Made by a program: the position numbers and the translations under genes. 39,163 nucleotides of DNA from Kayfunavirus PDP351P4: sequence record OZ035749.1. One strand, given 5' to 3'. The notes under the pieces are model-generated. The model had not been told where the DNA came from. It saw only the letters and a program-made list of their open reading frames with translations, and made no database searches. Below, in pieces: positions 3,146-28,625 of the stretch. The stretch's first letter is position 1, and every line of letters begins with the position of its first letter.

Positions 3146-3497
3146 TACTGTAGTCAAGGACTTTAGGTAACACCTTAATAGAAGCTCACTTAGGGTCATC
3201 CTACTTACTGGTCTATCCTAGTGTCGCCTGACCTACGGTCCTTGACCTACAGTGGCTGTGGCCTACAGCAGTGACGATGAGTTTTGGACCAAAAGTTTGA
3301 GACCACATCTCACAGTTCAAGAACCTCAAGTCTCCCCATAGGCCCTCTTTCAGTCCAGACCAAAGGCCCTACCCCAGTCTATCATAAGGTTGGACCGATG
3401 GTCAATACTTAAGGTCGACGATAGGTCTAGGCTATGGCTGGAGGTCAGGACGATAGGTAGGGACTATTGGTCTTCTTTGAGTCTCTATCTGTATCAG

Positions 3498-3610
3498 ACC
3501 ATAGGTCACAACCATAGGTCACAACCATAAGTCATAACCTACATCTCACAACCATAAGTCATAACCTACAGCCTCAACCATAAGACACCTACAGTCTAAA
3601 CCTACAGTTA
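3498..3610. repeat. tandem array of about 8 degenerate 13-14 bp units (ACCATAGGTCACA / ACCATAAGTCATA / ACCTACAGCCTCA ...) in the genome-end/left-end region
   Basis: read directly; first two units are identical; related ACCTACRG units also at about 3231-3270. Confidence 0.7.
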
Positions 3611-3720
3611 ATAGACACAATGGCTATAGACTTAAGGTCTAAGACGTGTTAGTCAAAGACTATATCCTCTTACACCATGGGGCCGACGATGGCTCAATCA
3701 ATATTATTTCAACTTACCTA

Positions 3721-3750
3721 TTGACTATAGGTCTCGACTATGGCCTAATA
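3721..3750 (+). promoter_or_regulatory. candidate host sigma70 early promoter (weak)
   Basis: TTGACT at 3721 with a poor -10 (CCTAAT/CTAATA) about 17-18 bp downstream. Confidence 0.25.
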
Positions 3751-3860
3751 GCTTCCGTCAACACGACACGGCAACAACCGGATAGTGAAGACGCCGTGTC
3801 ATCCCGGTTAAGTAGACAGCCTGATAAGTCATACGAACAACAGGCAGATGACAGAAGTAG

Positions 3861-3895
3861 TTGACAAGATGTAAGACTTAACGTAGTATGATTCA
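3861..3895 (+). promoter_or_regulatory. candidate host sigma70 early promoter (A-type)
   Basis: TTGACA (3861-3866), 17-bp spacer, TAGTAT (3884-3889); upstream of gene 0.3 where T7 carries A1-A3. Confidence 0.5.
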
Positions 3896-3928
3896 CCAAG
3901 TAGTACAGCAAGCGAGTTAAGAAAGTGA

Positions 3929-3963
3929 TTGACAAGCTGGTTTGACTGTAGTAACTTATACGA
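3929..3963 (+). promoter_or_regulatory. candidate host sigma70 early promoter (A-type, weaker -10)
   Basis: TTGACA (3929-3934), 17-bp spacer, TAACTT (3952-3957). Confidence 0.35.
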
Positions 3964-4080
3964 CAAGCAAGATTAGTGAGTCCCAACACTGAAACGGGAT
4001 AGCACGGCGACGACAGCCAATGCGAATGCTCTTTAACAATTTGGATAAACTCTTAATGTGCGCCGATAGCGACTAACTAC

Positions 4081-4110
4081 AGGGTCTTTGAGTCTACATC
4101 TGAAGGCCCT
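4081..4110 (+). promoter_or_regulatory. RNase III-site-like hairpin variant upstream of gene 0.3 (R0.3 position)
   Basis: AGGGTC ... GGCCCT stem with wobble pairing, same architecture as the AAGGTCA/TGGCCTT elements. Confidence 0.35.
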
Positions 4111-4155
4111 GACTGATAGTCACTAACACATACTTAACTTTGAGAGGATATAACT

Positions 4156-4488
4156 ATGGAACGTAACGCTAACGCATACTATGACCTGCTGGCTGCAACC
4201 GTTGAAGCATTTAACGAGCGTATTCAGTGCGACGAAATAGCTGAAGGCGATGACTACTGCGATGCGCTGCATGAAGTCGTAGACGGTCAGGTTCCGCACT
4301 ATTACCACGAGATTTTCACGGTGATGGCTGCGGATGGTATCGACCACGAGTTCGAAGACTCTGGGCTGATGCCTGAGACCACGGACGTAACGCGTATACT
4401 ACAAGCTCGCATCTATGAGGCACTGTATAACGATGTGTCTAATAGCTCGGATGTAGTTTGGTTTGAGGCTGAAGAGGACTGCGAGTGA
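4156..4488 (+). CDS. ocr: Ocr, anti-restriction DNA-mimic protein (T7 gp0.3-like)
   Basis: 110 aa, acidic; [43 protein letters not shown] aligns closely with remembered T7 Ocr ([43 protein letters not shown]); first early gene. Confidence 0.9.
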   Translation: [110 protein letters not shown]

Positions 4489-4649
4489 TGGTAACTTATG
4501 GTCTCTACCAGCACCACGTAACCAACGCCCGGATTATGGTCAAGACCGGGCAGTTTAAGCATGACACGATGTTAGAGTTCCTGAAAGCGGTCTACGAGGG
4601 CCGCAAACGTATTCACGATAGTCTACACGCTGAGGATAAAACACAATGA
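4488..4649 (+). CDS. small early protein, unknown function (gene 0.4-0.6 region)
   Basis: 53-aa ORF whose ATG overlaps the ocr stop (TGATG); translationally coupled chain of small ORFs typical of T7 class I genes. Confidence 0.4.
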   Translation: MVTYGLYQHHVTNARIMVKTGQFKHDTMLEFLKAVYEGRKRIHDSLHAEDKTQ

Positions 4650-4795
4650 AACGATACGCTATACACATTCCGGGATGGTGTTACACAATGACTTGCTACG
4701 GATACAATGAGAGAGATGCGCGGTCTCGCTTCCGCGATCAGCAAGGATTCGGTAAACGTCTGCCTAATGGTACAGCTATCTGGGAGATTGACTAA
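4646..4795 (+). CDS. small early protein, unknown function
   Basis: 49-aa ORF with ATGA overlap to the previous ORF. Confidence 0.4.
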   Translation: MKRYAIHIPGWCYTMTCYGYNERDARSRFRDQQGFGKRLPNGTAIWEID

Positions 4796-4796
4796 C

Positions 4797-4922
4797 ATGT
4801 ACCAGATAACTTATAGCAGTGAACAGGAGTTCTACGATGGGTGCTACGAGATGATGAAGCGCGGGGCTTGCTACGTGGCTAATCACCATAGCCTGACCAT
4901 AACGCTGACAGGCGGGTACTGA
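4797..4922 (+). CDS. small early protein, unknown function
   Basis: 41-aa ORF (MYQITYSSEQEFYDGCYEMMKRGACY...) starting 1 nt after the previous stop; C-terminal part of track ORF 4707..4922. Confidence 0.35.
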   Translation: MYQITYSSEQEFYDGCYEMMKRGACYVANHHSLTITLTGGY

Positions 4923-4933
4923 GTGATAGACGA

Positions 4934-4959
4934 GAGGTCATCGACTGATAGGTGGCCTC
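4934..4959 (+). promoter_or_regulatory. RNase III processing-site-like hairpin (R0.5 position)
   Basis: GAGGTCA ... TGGCCTC stem, same architecture as the sites at 314, 9167 and 16194. Confidence 0.45.
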
Positions 4960-5078
4960 AAAGATTACCACTTGCATTAATAGGGGTTAACTATGAGTGT
5001 GGGATATTGGGTATGCCTAGCGCCAGTTATCTTGCTGATAGGGTATGGGCTATACGATTGTATTAAACGGAAATCACT

Positions 5079-5276
5079 ATGAGTCTTGCACTATTGATAG
5101 CAATAGGCTATGGACTTATCGCCTACATGCTGGTGAGAGACATCAACAAGGCACGTAAAGTCTACAAATTCAACTATGTACGTCTGGGCCGCTGGACTGT
5201 ACGTCAACCTAACGGACGATTCATGCGCAACTTAGCGAACGTCTGGGATATAGCAACACTTGGGAGCAAACTGTAA
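5079..5276 (+). CDS. small early membrane-like protein, unknown function
   Basis: 65 aa with hydrophobic N-terminus (LALLIAIGYGLIAYMLV) and basic C-terminal part. Confidence 0.45.
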   Translation: MSLALLIAIGYGLIAYMLVRDINKARKVYKFNYVRLGRWTVRQPNGRFMRNLANVWDIATLGSKL

Positions 5277-5602
5277 TGAGCAAGTCTTACGGGATTAATC
5301 TGGTACACTCTATGGACGCAGAAATGAACATGTTAAGCCTACTGGCTACCGGGTATCGTCACGGAACGTCAAGTCACTCCGCACGTCAACAGCAGGAGAG
5401 GGACCGGGTACTGCAAGCAAGACTCCGGGCTGAGGGCCATAAGTCCGAACTGATGTGTCTGGCGTATGGTGGACAACCAATCACCGAAGATGGTAAACTT
5501 CTGGTCTCAGGCTGGAAGGCGATAGACCAACGGTCAACCATCAAGCACACGACTCACGGTGACTTCAGTCATCTTCATGCTAACCCGCTGATATGCAAGT
5601 AA
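5276..5602 (+). CDS. early protein, unknown function (occupies the gene 0.7 position but much shorter than the T7 0.7 kinase)
   Basis: 108-aa ORF, start overlaps the previous stop; no kinase motifs recognised. Confidence 0.45.
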   Translation: MSKSYGINLVHSMDAEMNMLSLLATGYRHGTSSHSARQQQERDRVLQARLRAEGHKSELMCLAYGGQPITEDGKLLVSGWKAIDQRSTIKHTTHGDFSHLHANPLICK

Positions 5603-5617
5603 CTCTGACTTAACTAT

Positions 5618-5641
5618 CACTATAGGACTCAAGGTCTAAGA
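5618..5641 (+). promoter_or_regulatory. phage RNAP promoter immediately upstream of the RNAP gene
   Basis: TTAACTATCACTATAGGACTC, about 65 bp upstream of the gene 1 ATG; followed by a GACTCAAGGTC RNase III-like motif. Confidence 0.65.
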
Positions 5642-5699
5642 CTCCAAGTGAAAGACCAAAGAGACTTTAAGTGAAAGACTAATAACAAGGACTTTAAGT

Positions 5700-8381
5700 A
5701 TGAGCGTCATCTCTATTGATAAGCACGACTTCTCTGATGTGTCAAGCGCCATTGAGCCGTTTAACCTGCTGGCTGACCACTACGGGCAAGACCTTGCAGT
5801 CAAACAGCTTCAGCTTGAGCATGAGGCATACACTGAAGGCGAGCGACGTTTCATCAAGAACCTTGAGCGACAGACTGAGCGCGGGGAACTGGCAGACAAT
5901 CAGGTCGCCAAGCCTTTGATGCAGACTCTTGTACCTAAGATTGCGCAAGCCGTCAGGGAGTGGCATGAAGGTCCAGACGGGAAGCTGTCAACCTCTCGTC
6001 CTAGCGTAGCGTTCACCATGTTGAGCACTGAAGAGAAGGCCGTTAAAGATCGCTCTCTACGCATCTCCTGTGAGTCTGCTGCGGTTATCATACTGAAGGT
6101 CATCCTCTCCAAGCTGGTCAAGCCTGAAGGGATACCGATTACACCGATGGCCTCCGCGATAGGTCGCACACTTGAGGACGAAATCCGCTTCGGTCGCATC
6201 CGTGATAAGGAGAAGGAGCACTTCAAGAAGGCGATAGCTGAGAACCTGAACAAGCGTGCCGGGGCATCCTACAAGAAAGCCTACATGCAAGCGGTTGAGA
6301 CATCCATGCTGGAGCAGGGTCAACTGGAAGATGCGTGGGGGACTTGGAGTCCTACCGAGGCGGTACACGTTGGCATCAAGATGCTTGAGATTGTCATCCA
6401 GTCTACACAACTGGTCGAGCTTAAGCGGTACGGTGCTGGCAATGCAGCGGCTGACGTAGAGATGGTCCACCTGTCAGACTTCTGGGTAAAGAAGATGGCA
6501 CAACGAGGATTCAGCCTTGCGGGTATCGCTCCAGTATACCAACCTTGCGTCGTTCCACCTAAGCCGTGGACTGGTGTCGTAGGCGGGGGGTACTGGGCTA
6601 AAGGTCGCAGACCGCTACCACTGATTCGCTTAGGGTCTAAGTCTGCGGTGGCACGTTACGAAGACGTGTACATGCCTGAAGTCTATGACGCTGTGAATAT
6701 CATCCAGAATACACCTTGGAAAGTGAACAAGAAGGTTCTGGACGTGGTGAACATGGTCGAGAAGTTGAACAACACGCCTATTGATGACATCCCTCAGATG
6801 GAGCCACTGAAGCCTGAAGACTATGCGGGCGAGACTGAAGAGGAACTCAAGGCATGGAAGAAGGCTGCTGCTGGTATCTACCGCCGAGAGAAGGCCCGGC
6901 AGTCACGCAGATTGTCACTGAGCTTTATAGTTAACCAAGCGAACAAGTTCTCTCAGTTCAAAGCCATCTGGTTCCCGTATAACATGGACTGGCGCGGTCG
7001 CGTCTACGCTGTGCCGATGTTCAACCCTCAGGGTAACGACATGCAAAAGGGTCTCCTGACTCTGGCAGTCGGTAAGCCTATTGGTGCTGATGGTTTCAAA
7101 TGGCTGAAGGTCCACGGTGCAAACTGCGCGGGTATTGATAAAGTAACCTTCGAGGAGCGCATCAAGTGGGTGGAAGACAACCACGATAACATCATGGCTA
7201 CCGCTAAGGCACCGATGGATAGCATTGAGTGGTGGGGCAAGTTAGACTCTCCGTTCTGCTTCCTTGCGTTCTGCTTCGAGTATGCTGGCGTAATGCACCA
7301 CGGTTTGTCTTACTCCTGCTCGCTGCCGATAGCTTTCGATGGGTCCTGCTCTGGGATTCAGCACTTCAGCGCGATGCTTCGTGATCACATCGGTGGACAT
7401 GCAGTAAACCTGACGCCATCCGGTAAGGTCCAAGATATCTACCGCATCGTGTCTGACCGAATTGAGGAGGAGCTTAAAGTCCTTCTGGTTAACGGTACGG
7501 ATAACGAGATGGTGACTCACGAGGACAAGAAAACGGGTGAGATTACCGAGCGTCTCAAGCTGGGGACACGAGAGCTGGCCCGTCAGTGGCTGACCTACGG
7601 TATGTCTCGCAAGGTCACTAAGCGTTCAGTCATGACTCTGGCCTACGGGTCAAAAGAGTATGGCTTCGCAGACCAAGTGTACGAGGACATCGTGATGCCA
7701 GCGATTGACTCAGGGTCTGGCGCTATGTTCACTGAACCAAGCCAAGCGTCTCGCTTCATGGCTAAGATGATTTGGGAAGCTGTGAGCGTGACCGTAGTTG
7801 CTGCGGTTGACGCGATGAAGTGGCTTCAAGGTGCCGCCAAGCTGCTGGCTGCTGAAGTGAAGGACAAGAAGACTGGAGAAATCCTGAAGCCTTGCCTTCC
7901 GGTACACTGGGTAACACCTGATGGTTTCCCGGTCTGGCAGGAATACCGCAAGAAGGATACCACTCGTCTGAACCTGATGTTCTTAGGGTCATTCAACCTT
8001 CAGCCTACAGTCAACAAAGGCACGAAGAAAGAGCTGGACAAGCACAAGCAGGAGTCAGGCATTAGCCCGAACTTCGTCCACTCACAAGATGGAAGCCACC
8101 TACGCAAGACTGTAGTCCACACTCACCGCAAGTATGGCGTGATGTCATTCGCAGTGATTCACGATAGCTTCGGGACCATCCCGGCTGACGCTGAGTTCCT
8201 GTTCAAGGGAGTCCGTGAGACGATGGTCGAGACATACCGCGACAACGATGTGCTGCTGGACTTCTACGAGCAGTTTGAATACCAGCTTCATGAGAGCCAG
8301 CGCGACAAGTTGCCTGAGCTTCCGAAGAAAGGTAAACTGAATATAGAAGACATCTTGTCTTCAGACTTTGCATTCGCTTAA
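5700..8381 (+). CDS. single-subunit DNA-directed RNA polymerase (T7 gp1-like)
   Basis: 893 aa (T7 RNAP 883 aa); gene 1 position; C-terminus ends FAFA as in T7 RNAP; read as T7 RNAP-like along its length. Confidence 0.96.
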   Translation: MSVISIDKHDFSDVSSAIEPFNLLADHYGQDLAVKQLQLEHEAYTEGERRFIKNLERQTERGELADNQVAKPLMQTLVPKIAQAVREWHEGPDGKLSTSRPSVAFTMLSTEEKAVKDRSLRISCESAAVIILKVILSKLVKPEGIPITPMASAIGRTLEDEIRFGRIRDKEKEHFKKAIAENLNKRAGASYKKAYMQAVETSMLEQGQLEDAWGTWSPTEAVHVGIKMLEIVIQSTQLVELKRYGAGNAAADVEMVHLSDFWVKKMAQRGFSLAGIAPVYQPCVVPPKPWTGVVGGGYWAKGRRPLPLIRLGSKSAVARYEDVYMPEVYDAVNIIQNTPWKVNKKVLDVVNMVEKLNNTPIDDIPQMEPLKPEDYAGETEEELKAWKKAAAGIYRREKARQSRRLSLSFIVNQANKFSQFKAIWFPYNMDWRGRVYAVPMFNPQGNDMQKGLLTLAVGKPIGADGFKWLKVHGANCAGIDKVTFEERIKWVEDNHDNIMATAKAPMDSIEWWGKLDSPFCFLAFCFEYAGVMHHGLSYSCSLPIAFDGSCSGIQHFSAMLRDHIGGHAVNLTPSGKVQDIYRIVSDRIEEELKVLLVNGTDNEMVTHEDKKTGEITERLKLGTRELARQWLTYGMSRKVTKRSVMTLAYGSKEYGFADQVYEDIVMPAIDSGSGAMFTEPSQASRFMAKMIWEAVSVTVVAAVDAMKWLQGAAKLLAAEVKDKKTGEILKPCLPVHWVTPDGFPVWQEYRKKDTTRLNLMFLGSFNLQPTVNKGTKKELDKHKQESGISPNFVHSQDGSHLRKTVVHTHRKYGVMSFAVIHDSFGTIPADAEFLFKGVRETMVETYRDNDVLLDFYEQFEYQLHESQRDKLPELPKKGKLNIEDILSSDFAFA

Positions 8382-8393
8382 TAGGAGAGAGTT

Positions 8394-8594
8394 ATGAAAT
8401 TTGCACACAAGCAGACTGGCATTAAGGGTGGGACTCAAATCGTGACCGTAACAGAACACAACGGAAAGGGTCTGGTGAAGACCACAGTCATCCCTACCGA
8501 GATGTCAAAACAGCTTAAAGTCCCATTCAAGTGGCTGGTGCAGCAGGTTGAGCAGGCACACAAGCAAGCTCTTAAAGAGGCGGCAACCAAATGA
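8394..8594 (+). CDS. hypothetical protein (insertion between gene 1 and gene 1.1)
   Basis: 66-aa ORF with AGGAGAG RBS; no T7 counterpart at this position. Confidence 0.5.
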   Translation: MKFAHKQTGIKGGTQIVTVTEHNGKGLVKTTVIPTEMSKQLKVPFKWLVQQVEQAHKQALKEAATK

Positions 8595-8672
8595 CAGACC
8601 TACAGTTACTGGCCTTGTGGCTAGGAGCACTCGCAGTATTCACTTTAATCCAACGCAGAAGAGGTTAACCCT

Positions 8673-9143
8673 ATGTTCGGTAAGTCAAAACTTAAAGCAC
8701 AAATCAAAGAGTTGAACATGAAGGTGGCATACTTGGAGCGAGCCATAGAGGCCCGGGACAAGGACAATGAGCGGCTGAAGGATAAGCTCGCTGAATCCGA
8801 GCGTAAGCGCCTAACGCCACCAGCTGCTGTAACTGTCAAGCGTATGGTTGGCATCAAGTTCAAGGCACTGTTCGACGGGATGTACCAACCGACTGAGTTC
8901 AAGACTGGACCGGGTAACTGCGGTAAGAACGTTAAGCACTTCACAACATCGAAGACTGAGCGCACCATTACCATTCACCAGCACCACGTAGACGGGTCTC
9001 AGAAAGACTTTGAGTATCGACTTAGCGACATAGACGGTCGCATCCAGTATGACTACGAGATGATTAAGGTCTATGGCGAGGAGGCCGAACGTGAGCGAGA
9101 GCTTCAGGCAGCCATGCGGATAAGGCCGAAAATCCTCTTCTAA
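8673..9143 (+). CDS. hypothetical protein with N-terminal coiled-coil-like region (insertion between gene 1 and gene 1.1)
   Basis: 156-aa ORF; charged heptad-like N-terminus (KAQIKELNMKVAYLERAIEARDKDNERLKDKLAESERKR); no T7 counterpart. Confidence 0.5.
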   Translation: MFGKSKLKAQIKELNMKVAYLERAIEARDKDNERLKDKLAESERKRLTPPAAVTVKRMVGIKFKALFDGMYQPTEFKTGPGNCGKNVKHFTTSKTERTITIHQHHVDGSQKDFEYRLSDIDGRIQYDYEMIKVYGEEAERERELQAAMRIRPKILF

Positions 9144-9162
9144 ACTATCACTATAGGATTAG
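9139..9162 (+). promoter_or_regulatory. phage RNAP promoter (phi1.1 position)
   Basis: CTAAACTATCACTATAGGATT. Confidence 0.7.
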
Positions 9163-9166
9163 ACTC

Positions 9167-9193
9167 AAGGTCATGACTCAAAGTCGTGGCCTT
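9167..9193 (+). promoter_or_regulatory. RNase III processing-site-like hairpin (R1.1 position)
   Basis: AAGGTCA ... TGGCCTT stem with 13-nt loop, immediately downstream of the promoter. Confidence 0.5.
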
Positions 9194-9231
9194 CATGATC
9201 AACCCTAACTCATTCAATCAGGAGCTACACC

Positions 9232-9411
9232 ATGTATCAGAACACTATCAACTTCGAGCGCATCCGTGAACGTCAGCAGACTGAAGGTTACATTCCTAAG
9301 GGTCGCAAGCTGAACAAGACCAAACGTGGAGGCGGCATCAAGGGCGCTTTCCGTAACGCTGAAGGCAAAGACTCTCTGGTCAACCAAGAGAAATACTTCG
9401 TAGGAGCATAA
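9232..9411 (+). CDS. gene 1.1-like small basic protein
   Basis: 59-aa ORF (below the 60-aa track cutoff) with CAGGAG RBS; KGRKLNKTKRGGG matches the KGRKLNKTKR motif remembered from T7 gp1.1. Confidence 0.6.
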   Translation: MYQNTINFERIRERQQTEGYIPKGRKLNKTKRGGGIKGAFRNAEGKDSLVNQEKYFVGA

Positions 9412-9415
9412 CCAA

Positions 9416-9679
9416 ATGGGCCGACTTTATAGTGGCAACCTCAACGCTTTCAGAGCTGCATGTAACAGGCTTTATCAGTTAGACTTCGCTGTTATATCTC
9501 AGGAGTTTCAAGACCCTGCGTCACGCCAAGAGTGCATGAAACTCAGGGTGGAGGACCGAGCTGGTAACATCTTCGCGCTTGAGAACTTCGCACACTACGA
9601 TGAAGACGTGCTGTACAACACTGCAACAGACTTCCTTAACGGTCTCGCTGACCGACTCAACACATGGAGTAAATCATAA
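9416..9679 (+). CDS. gene 1.2 product, host dGTPase inhibitor (T7 gp1.2-like)
   Basis: 87 aa (T7 gp1.2 is 85); begins MGRLYSGNLNAFRAA, closely matching the T7 gp1.2 N-terminus (MGRLYSGNLAAFKAA) and aligning across the length. Confidence 0.8.
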   Translation: MGRLYSGNLNAFRAACNRLYQLDFAVISQEFQDPASRQECMKLRVEDRAGNIFALENFAHYDEDVLYNTATDFLNGLADRLNTWSKS

Positions 9680-14207: not shown

Positions 14208-14226
14208 ACTATCACCTTAGGGATGG
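14203..14226 (+). promoter_or_regulatory. phage RNAP promoter variant upstream of gene 4
   Basis: CTAAACTATCACCTTAGGGATG; two substitutions relative to the family consensus, so possibly weak. Confidence 0.4.
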
Positions 14227-16018: not shown

Positions 16019-16183
16019 GTGTTAAAGAAACTTAAAGCTCGATACCATCGGTTCATGTACAAATGGTGGAGCGATGAAGCAACCTGCCTGTCCAACATTC
16101 TGGGAGACCAAAGGTTCGACTCTGAGGCATGGAAGAAAGCTAACCGGAAGTTTATGTATCACTTCTTGCGTACAGACTTCTAG
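16019..16183 (+). CDS. small hypothetical protein (gene 4.3/4.5 position), GTG start
   Basis: 54-aa ORF from GTG with GGAGGA RBS 7 nt upstream; between gene 4 and gene 5. Confidence 0.35.
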   Translation: MLKKLKARYHRFMYKWWSDEATCLSNILGDQRFDSEAWKKANRKFMYHFLRTDF

Positions 16184-16193
16184 GTCTAGACTC

Positions 16194-16218
16194 AAGGTCA
16201 TTCACAGTGAGTGGCCTT
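16194..16218 (+). promoter_or_regulatory. RNase III processing-site-like hairpin (R4.7 position)
   Basis: AAGGTCA ... TGGCCTT stem, flanked by GACTC and TATG, upstream of the DNA polymerase gene. Confidence 0.5.
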
Positions 16219-16247
16219 TATGATTAGACTAAAGCGGAGGATTAACC

Positions 16248-25231: not shown

Positions 25232-25270
25232 AACCCCTTGGGTGCCTTCGGGTGCTTGAGGGGTTTTTTG
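25232..25270 (+). terminator. T-phi-like terminator for the phage RNAP
   Basis: AACCCCTTGGGTGCCTTCGGGTGCTTGAGGGGTTTTTTG: GC-rich G-U-containing hairpin plus T6 tract, closely resembling T7 T-phi and located just after gene 10. Confidence 0.8.
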
Positions 25271-28573: not shown

Positions 28574-28597
28574 CCTTAACTATCACTATAGGGACTA
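28574..28597 (+). promoter_or_regulatory. phage RNAP promoter (phi13 position)
   Basis: CCTTAACTATCACTATAGGGACTA. Confidence 0.7.
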
Positions 28598-28625
28598 TAG
28601 GCCCTTAAGGTTATAAGGAGACTTT

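Follow-up and report, generated by a model that had tools for sequence, protein, structure and literature searches.

In the textbook model of T7 development, host polymerase makes the phage RNA polymerase (RNAP), which takes over, and gene 1 is strictly early. The T7 promoter phiOL is located at nt 405, 2.8 kb upstream of gene 1 and before the host promoters, and phi1.1B is found 3′ of gene 1. A preliminary description of the locus studied here had stated that host-RNAP transcripts alone reach gene 1 in T7; this is overstated, as phiOL is annotated upstream of the gene in the T7 record. The synthetic T7 autogene combines a cognate promoter, the RNAP gene and an independent trigger for the first molecules, and autocatalytic amplification was shown for it (PMC1500874, citing Dubendorff and Studier 1991). 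In the Pseudomonas phage LUZ100, the phi1 start was mapped experimentally directly upstream of the RNAP gene and a positive feedback loop was proposed. LUZ100 is a distant, temperate-like relative of the phage analysed here, and the loop is proposed there to be gated by a MarR-like repressor. A published promoter of phiIBB-PF7A is likewise named phi1 (PMC3080317). Within Kayfunavirus, the Sparklingdew paper (2026) gives the consensus CTWAACTATCACTATAGG, one copy of which lies at the 3′ end of the gene preceding the RNAP gene (PMC13298934), and in Citrobacter phage CR44b (NC_023576) positions 1814–1836, directly before gene 1, are annotated as ‘predicted promoter’. Self-amplification is undiscussed in the accessible texts on K1F, CR44b and Sparklingdew.

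The DNA analysed here, called the window throughout (39,163 bp), is a complete but rotated Kayfunavirus (K1F-like, Studiervirinae) genome, and its positions 5000–8400 show 94–96% identity to many Kayfunavirus records. The physical left end was placed at ~3308, the window position with which the initial 25 nt of K1F align. Genes 18 to 19 occupy 30–2613 and are followed by a phiOR-like promoter (+1 at 2725). The early region extends from ~3308 to 5602 and includes an Ocr-like protein and small proteins without assigned function; near the left end, at 3490–3610, it carries arrays of ~13–15-nt repeats (CACAACCATAGGT / CATAACCTACAG), which correspond to the repeats at the left end of T7. Two sigma-70-like promoters of the TTGACA type are found on the + strand at 3861–3889 and 3929–3957, ~550–650 nt from the left end, a position similar to that of A1–A3 in T7 (498–750 in the T7 record). 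Both are consensus matches only, and the regional count of such sites is no higher than in shuffles; they are the likely host-RNAP triggers for the first gene 1 mRNA. Elsewhere in the genome, a T-phi-like terminator with a GC-rich stem followed by GTTTTTTG was observed 3′ of the major capsid gene (25245–25262), and a search of the whole window against Rfam at gathering thresholds gave no match.

Gene 1 (5700–8381, + strand) encodes a single-subunit RNA polymerase of 893 aa with 63% identity to T7 RNAP, whose specificity loop carries R/N/N/Q at T7 positions 746/748/756/758. The Shine-Dalgarno sequence AAGGA (5687–5691, + strand) is located 8 nt 5′ of the ATG, in a block, AAGGACTTTAAGTATG, that is unchanged in 12 of 13 aligned relatives. 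The last early ORF (5276–5602, + strand, 108 aa) corresponds to phrog_7066 (E = 5e-45) and is separated from gene 1 by a gap of 97 nt. Inside this gap we found a K1F-class phage RNAP promoter, which covers −17 to +6 at 5608–5630 on the + strand (T7 convention, scored with the genome's own matrix); the stop codon of the early ORF is only 6 nt 5′ of position −17. Promoter and leader are nearly those of K1F itself (NC_007456, ~2470–2565): the promoter is identical and the leader differs at one base.

The 18-mer TTAACTATCACTATAGGA at 5610–5627 has 10 matches on the + strand at up to 3 mismatches, against 0.01 expected. A position weight matrix built from these matches retrieved 11 sites with CTWAACTATCACTATAGGR, all on the + strand, with +1 positions at 2725, 5625, 9156, 11003, 11870, 14220, 20142, 22963, 23943, 28591 and 36264. 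The gene 1 promoter scores 36.9 bits, and the ten strong sites span 31.6–41.5 bits. The remaining one (+1 at 14220) is a weak variant, CACCTTAGG, of 26 bits, and the promoter with +1 at 28591 (28584–28601) has a second core-like sequence, GACTATAGG, directly behind it. At positions −12 to −7 the gene 1 promoter reads ACTATC, consistent with a K1F-type loop (N748, N756); T7 RNAP that had received the specificity loop of K1F was reported to activate a promoter with the K1F −12 to −7 consensus (PMC3458549). By its GGA start and variable −2/−3 positions the gene 1 promoter groups with the class II-type promoters before DNA-metabolism genes, and it is unlike the GGGAGA type before the capsid gene. 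Its −15/−14 positions are TT, as in the promoters with +1 at 2725 and 28591, instead of the commoner TA, and this feature counts against a working promoter at gene 1.

Alignment to the T7 convention (TATA, then +1 G) places the predicted transcription start at G 5625, 75 nt 5′ of the gene 1 ATG (5700), so that the predicted transcript begins with GGACUCAAGG. The consensus promoter announced in the preliminary description is thus present, at 75 nt instead of the ~65 bp given for its distance to the ATG, and initiation, which had been put at about 5635, is predicted 10 nt earlier. Similarly, the feature delimited at 5618–5699 begins too late, position 5618 being already within the promoter core and the promoter starting at 5608. 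No terminator-like site was found on the + strand from 5625 to 9500.

Between the predicted +1 and the ATG, the 5′ leader is built of degenerate GACTNNAAGTNNAA units of ~13–14 nt, six in number, which run from +2 to the ATG (5626–5699, + strand). The sequence AAGTGAAAGAC is found exactly at 5646–5656 and 5669–5679 and corresponds to the short direct repeats noticed twice in the first reading; both copies are members of this longer degenerate array. Another repeat, GACTTTAAGT, occurs on the + strand at 5663–5672 and 5690–5699. Tandem Repeats Finder reported no array in 5500–5800, the leader repeats being too degenerate. A genome-wide enrichment of CTT[TA]AAG (16 copies versus 4.9 expected) lies mostly within genes and was set aside as uninformative on the leader.

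We observed a significant similarity of this leader to the leader between phi1.1B and gene 1.1 of T7, with an alignment score of 23 against 6.8 ± 2.5 for shuffled sequences, none of 1000 of which reached 23. Removal of the Shine-Dalgarno end lowered the score to 13 (shuffles 5.4 ± 2.1, reached by 4 of 1000). By this similarity, the cassette looks like a relative of phi1.1B set before, not after, gene 1. The T7 phi1.1B–gene 1.1 leader is also part of the T7 primary origin, and the cassette might hence serve DNA replication in the first place, as an origin or a primer promoter comparable to T7 phi1.1A/phi1.1B with their AT-rich region, feedback on gene 1 being a side effect. When the leader (5628–5699) is compared with the initial 6.5 kb of T7, its best match is exactly that T7 leader, its A+T content is 64% compared with 50% for the genome, and one copy of the T7-type primase site TGGTC is present on the minus strand at 5654. 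However, the other promoter leaders of the genome have 54–67% A+T, which makes the gene 1 leader unexceptional, whereas the T7 leader reaches 73%; by our own estimate, chance alone would give about 0.65 primase pentamers per 111 nt; and the similarity to phi1.1B falls largely in the translation-start block GGACTTTAAGTATG. We consider a main role as an origin improbable.

Conservation and specificity of the site were examined in 80 IMG/VR loci around RNAP homologues and in named genomes. Since k-mer de novo promoter finding picked the left-end repeat arrays in 12 loci, explicit promoter cores were used instead. A full-strength cognate site was present before gene 1 in all 23 loci of the Kayfunavirus clade (22 scanned by score, and K1F; RNAP identity 85–100%), with +1 located 75–82 nt before the ATG and scores of 35–41 bits, which is the average score of the promoters in the respective genome. 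The comparison with gene 1 upstream regions of related phages, which had been proposed as a check, thus bore out the promoter. In contrast, none of 59 T7-, T3- and K11-type loci (RNAP identity 58–64%) carried such a site: the best score between −400 and 0 was at most 7.1 bits, for a site mean of ~36, and the nearest promoter 5′ of gene 1 was typically of the phiOL type, 2.2–3.5 kb away.

The identity of the site follows that of the polymerase. K1F-type RNAPs carry N748/N756 (T7 numbering) and their promoters read AACTATCACT, with T at −10 and A at −9. The RNAPs of EcpYZU01 (L005) and of locus L019 have D748/R756, as in T3, together with a T7-like N-terminal recognition loop, and in these two genomes the promoters read AACCCTCACT at every copy, that of gene 1 included, with C at both −10 and −9 (ACCCTC at −12 to −7). 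This Kayfunavirus sub-lineage has switched promoter specificity, all its promoters being TAAACCCTCACTATAGG and not TAAACTATCACTATAGG. Tracking of the RNAP specificity by the gene 1 site constitutes strong, although indirect, evidence of a working site: a site that has followed a change in specificity is no silent relic. In the Dev2-type phages (L004, 2386–2450; L014, L015, L016 and L021), an A at −2 was found in the gene 1 promoter alone (CACTAAAGG), which could weaken that promoter.

A related sequence is found on the + strand at 3616–3660, behind the left-end repeat arrays and at the position of phiOL in T7. It reads ACAATGGCTATA-GACTTAAGGTCTAAGAC... and corresponds to a paralog of the gene 1 cassette that has decayed (local alignment score 23 versus 10.1 ± 2.0; 0 of 1000 shuffles reached 23), whose promoter half is degraded and stays below the 8 bits from which the promoter matrix lists a site. 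At least 7 other Kayfunavirus loci keep the same decayed form, so that a function other than that of a promoter may be attached to it. Such a paralog demonstrates that cassettes of this kind can duplicate and then decay, and the gene 1 site might by the same token be a non-functional remnant of a duplicated cassette. But the decayed copy at 3616–3660 also illustrates what neglect looks like. The gene 1 copy has stayed intact in all 23 loci, whereas the few bases directly 5′ of −17 vary among them, it scores as high as the other promoters of the genome, and it changed along with the RNAP specificity. A remnant is hence extremely improbable, and a chance match or a relic was rejected as an account of the gene 1 promoter on grounds of conservation, score and specificity co-variation. 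Taken together, the sequence data argue that the site is quite likely a functional K1F-class promoter, used by the RNAP of this phage and placed 75 nt before the RNAP gene.

An RNase III-like motif had also been noted in the leader. The motif is real: GACTCAAGGTC, the 5′-arm motif of RNase III-type hairpins, is found exactly at 5626–5636 on the + strand and is identical to the 5′ arm of T7 R1.1. A canonical site is not formed, however, as the 3′ arm is missing. While the longer 5′ arm GACUCAAGGUCAU is matched at 11 of 13 bases, with an exact match over GACTCAAGGTC, neither the 3′ arm GTGGCCTT nor the complementary 3′ arm (GUGGCCUU...AUGAU) of a ~20-bp two-part hairpin is present in the gene 1 leader. 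Genome-wide, GACTCAAGGTC gave 17 matches at up to 1 mismatch compared with 1.13 expected, several of them on the minus strand within genes. The canonical AAGGTCA...GGCCTT form is confined to 314, 9167 and 16194. These positions belong to three near-identical, strong hairpins that have TAGACTCAAGGTCAT...GTGGCCTTTATGAT in common: one at 303–352, between genes 18 and 18.5 (−32.2 kcal/mol, z −4.7), one of the R1.1 type at ~9160–9205 on the + strand, behind the promoter with +1 at 9156 (9139–9205 together; z −2.29 and −2.84), and one at 16183–16232. They look like T7-type RNase III sites, analogues of R18.5 and R1.1 and one more.

The gene 1 leader is predicted to form another, irregular hairpin at 5614–5677 (+ strand), in which UCACUAUAGG of the promoter pairs with CUUUAAGUGA. 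Its free energy of −17.4 kcal/mol (z −2.56) was not reached by any of 200 shuffles in one folding window, whereas other windows over the leader gave z values around −0.2. As its 5′ arm includes promoter positions −11 to +2, the complete form would be restricted to transcripts initiated further 5′ than this promoter. The element could accordingly be chiefly an RNA processing or stability hairpin, a counterpart of T7 R1 acting in host-RNAP read-through transcripts, with the promoter-like sequence kept as its 5′ arm. Besides the opening of the three canonical hairpins by GACTCAAGGTC, this would account for the UCACUAUAGG/CUUUAAGUGA hairpin being more stable than shuffles in three sub-lineages, the z values of the analogous hairpins in the Dev2-type and L019-type lineages being −2.27 and −2.17, and for the arms of the Dev2-type hairpin, which form a perfect 11-bp inverted repeat, TATCACTAAAG / CTTTAGTGATA. 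In the Dev2-type downstream box one A was lost and another base changed, and these differences together with the A at −2 produce the perfect repeat.

Several observations are nevertheless difficult to reconcile with a hairpin as the chief role. No canonical 3′ arm is available in the leader; no pair of 5614–5677 showed a compensatory change in an explicit hairpin model; and RNAalifold on 13 relatives returned, at −3.96 kcal/mol, only a weak long-range pairing, again devoid of covariation. EcpYZU01 keeps the promoter and is devoid of the hairpin. Moreover, a role as hairpin would explain neither the conservation of −17 to −12, outside the stem, nor the tracking of RNAP specificity by −10/−9. 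We thus regard this explanation as distinctly improbable, while promoter and hairpin roles could coexist. A two-level element can be imagined, which would act as a promoter in DNA and whose −11 to +2 segment would serve as a hairpin arm in RNA coming from upstream (host RNAP or phiOR read-through); we hold it to be a rather unlikely possibility. If it were true, the gene 1 mRNAs made early by the host and those made by the phage RNAP in the middle period would be distinguished by their 5′ structure, or by the way they are processed, stabilised or translated, providing a built-in hand-over between both polymerases. An evolutionary reading tied to it, in which the gene-1-proximal promoter is ancestral in Studiervirinae and was lost in the T7, T3 and K11 lineages, is equally doubtful, the two being judged jointly.

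Returning to the promoter role, a model of gene 1 expression can be proposed. Host RNAP would start at the sigma-70-type promoters of the left end and read the early genes into gene 1, giving rise to the first RNAP molecules. The phage RNAP would then start at G 5625 and produce a GGACUCAAGG... transcript carrying the leader, the ribosome-binding site and gene 1, which probably runs on into class II genes. Gene 1 would be in this way the first gene of the phage-RNAP regulon, self-amplifying and freed from the host polymerase. If the analogy with the class II promoters of T7 holds, the loop would stay active during the middle period, after which the lysozyme homologue would damp it. Given a Shine-Dalgarno sequence and an ATG with no terminator-like site on the way, initiation at 5625 would yield a translatable gene 1 mRNA and hence positive feedback, which we infer to be a natural consequence of the layout. 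Searchable literature contained no transcript data on any Kayfunavirus; firing of the promoter during infection, the strength of the feedback and its eventual damping are what we infer from the arrangement described above. That T7, T3 and K11 thrive without a gene 1-proximal promoter counts against the model.

The same wiring as in the T7 autogene was found here: a cognate promoter 5′ of the RNAP ORF, a 75-nt leader, a ribosome-binding site and no terminator-like site between them. The T7 autogene is engineered, whereas the phage loop would be natural and inserted in a timed lytic programme. Compared with LUZ100, where the phi1 start is experimentally mapped, the start at 5625 is predicted from sequence, and neither a MarR-like repressor nor its operator is evident in the present phage.

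Gene 1-proximal promoters were further found in genomes of Ghunavirus, Pifdecavirus, Pijolavirus and Serkorvirus. Consensus cognate promoters are located ~100–150 nt before the RNAP ATG in the Pseudomonas phages phi 21A, SNK, shl2 and PspYZU08 and in Ralstonia phage 10RS305A, the latter with two such promoters in tandem. These phages differ from the window in promoter specificity (AACCCTCAC..., ACCCACACTA...) and their RNAPs have 46–57% identity to that of the window. In the four Pseudomonas phages, the leader contains units of the CTTAAAGAC / CTTTAAGTAAAAGC / CTCTTAG type in repeated copies, similar to the leader units here, which suggests a conserved property of the gene 1 leader. In SP6 and K1-5, no gene 1-proximal site was found and the nearest SP6-type sites are ~1–1.3 kb upstream of the RNAP gene.

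Thus the layout, already annotated and widespread outside the T7, T3 and K11 clades, is not novel; it is not peculiar to this phage and represents no new kind of element. The additions made here are modest: the split between clades (23 of 23 versus 0 of 59), the finding that the site changes together with the RNAP specificity residues, and the similarity of the leader to that of phi1.1B, to which a promoter doubling as an RNA hairpin arm in read-through transcripts would possibly be added. According to this survey, the textbook wiring is limited to the T7, T3 and K11 groups, and K1F-like phages together with several Pseudomonas and Ralstonia phages would represent a natural ‘autogene’. Such wiring is relevant to models of how gene expression is timed in T7-type phages, to the robustness of host takeover by therapeutic phage candidates where host promoter recognition differs, and to synthetic biology, in which K1F-type polymerase/promoter pairs are already used.

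Some particular cases were encountered during the survey. One T3-like IMG/VR contig (L045; 8421, 9373) has almost no early region, with no ORF of at least 40 aa between 8728 and 9974, and its phiOL-like promoter is located 628 bp before gene 1. Among L087, L088, L090 and L091 (Ghunavirus, Pifdecavirus and Pijolavirus), the leaders contain CTTAAAGAC three times, CTTTAAGTAAAAGCT twice and CTCTTAG twice. Finally, the gene 1 leader of phi 21A folds into a long hairpin of ~26 bp (z −3.4).
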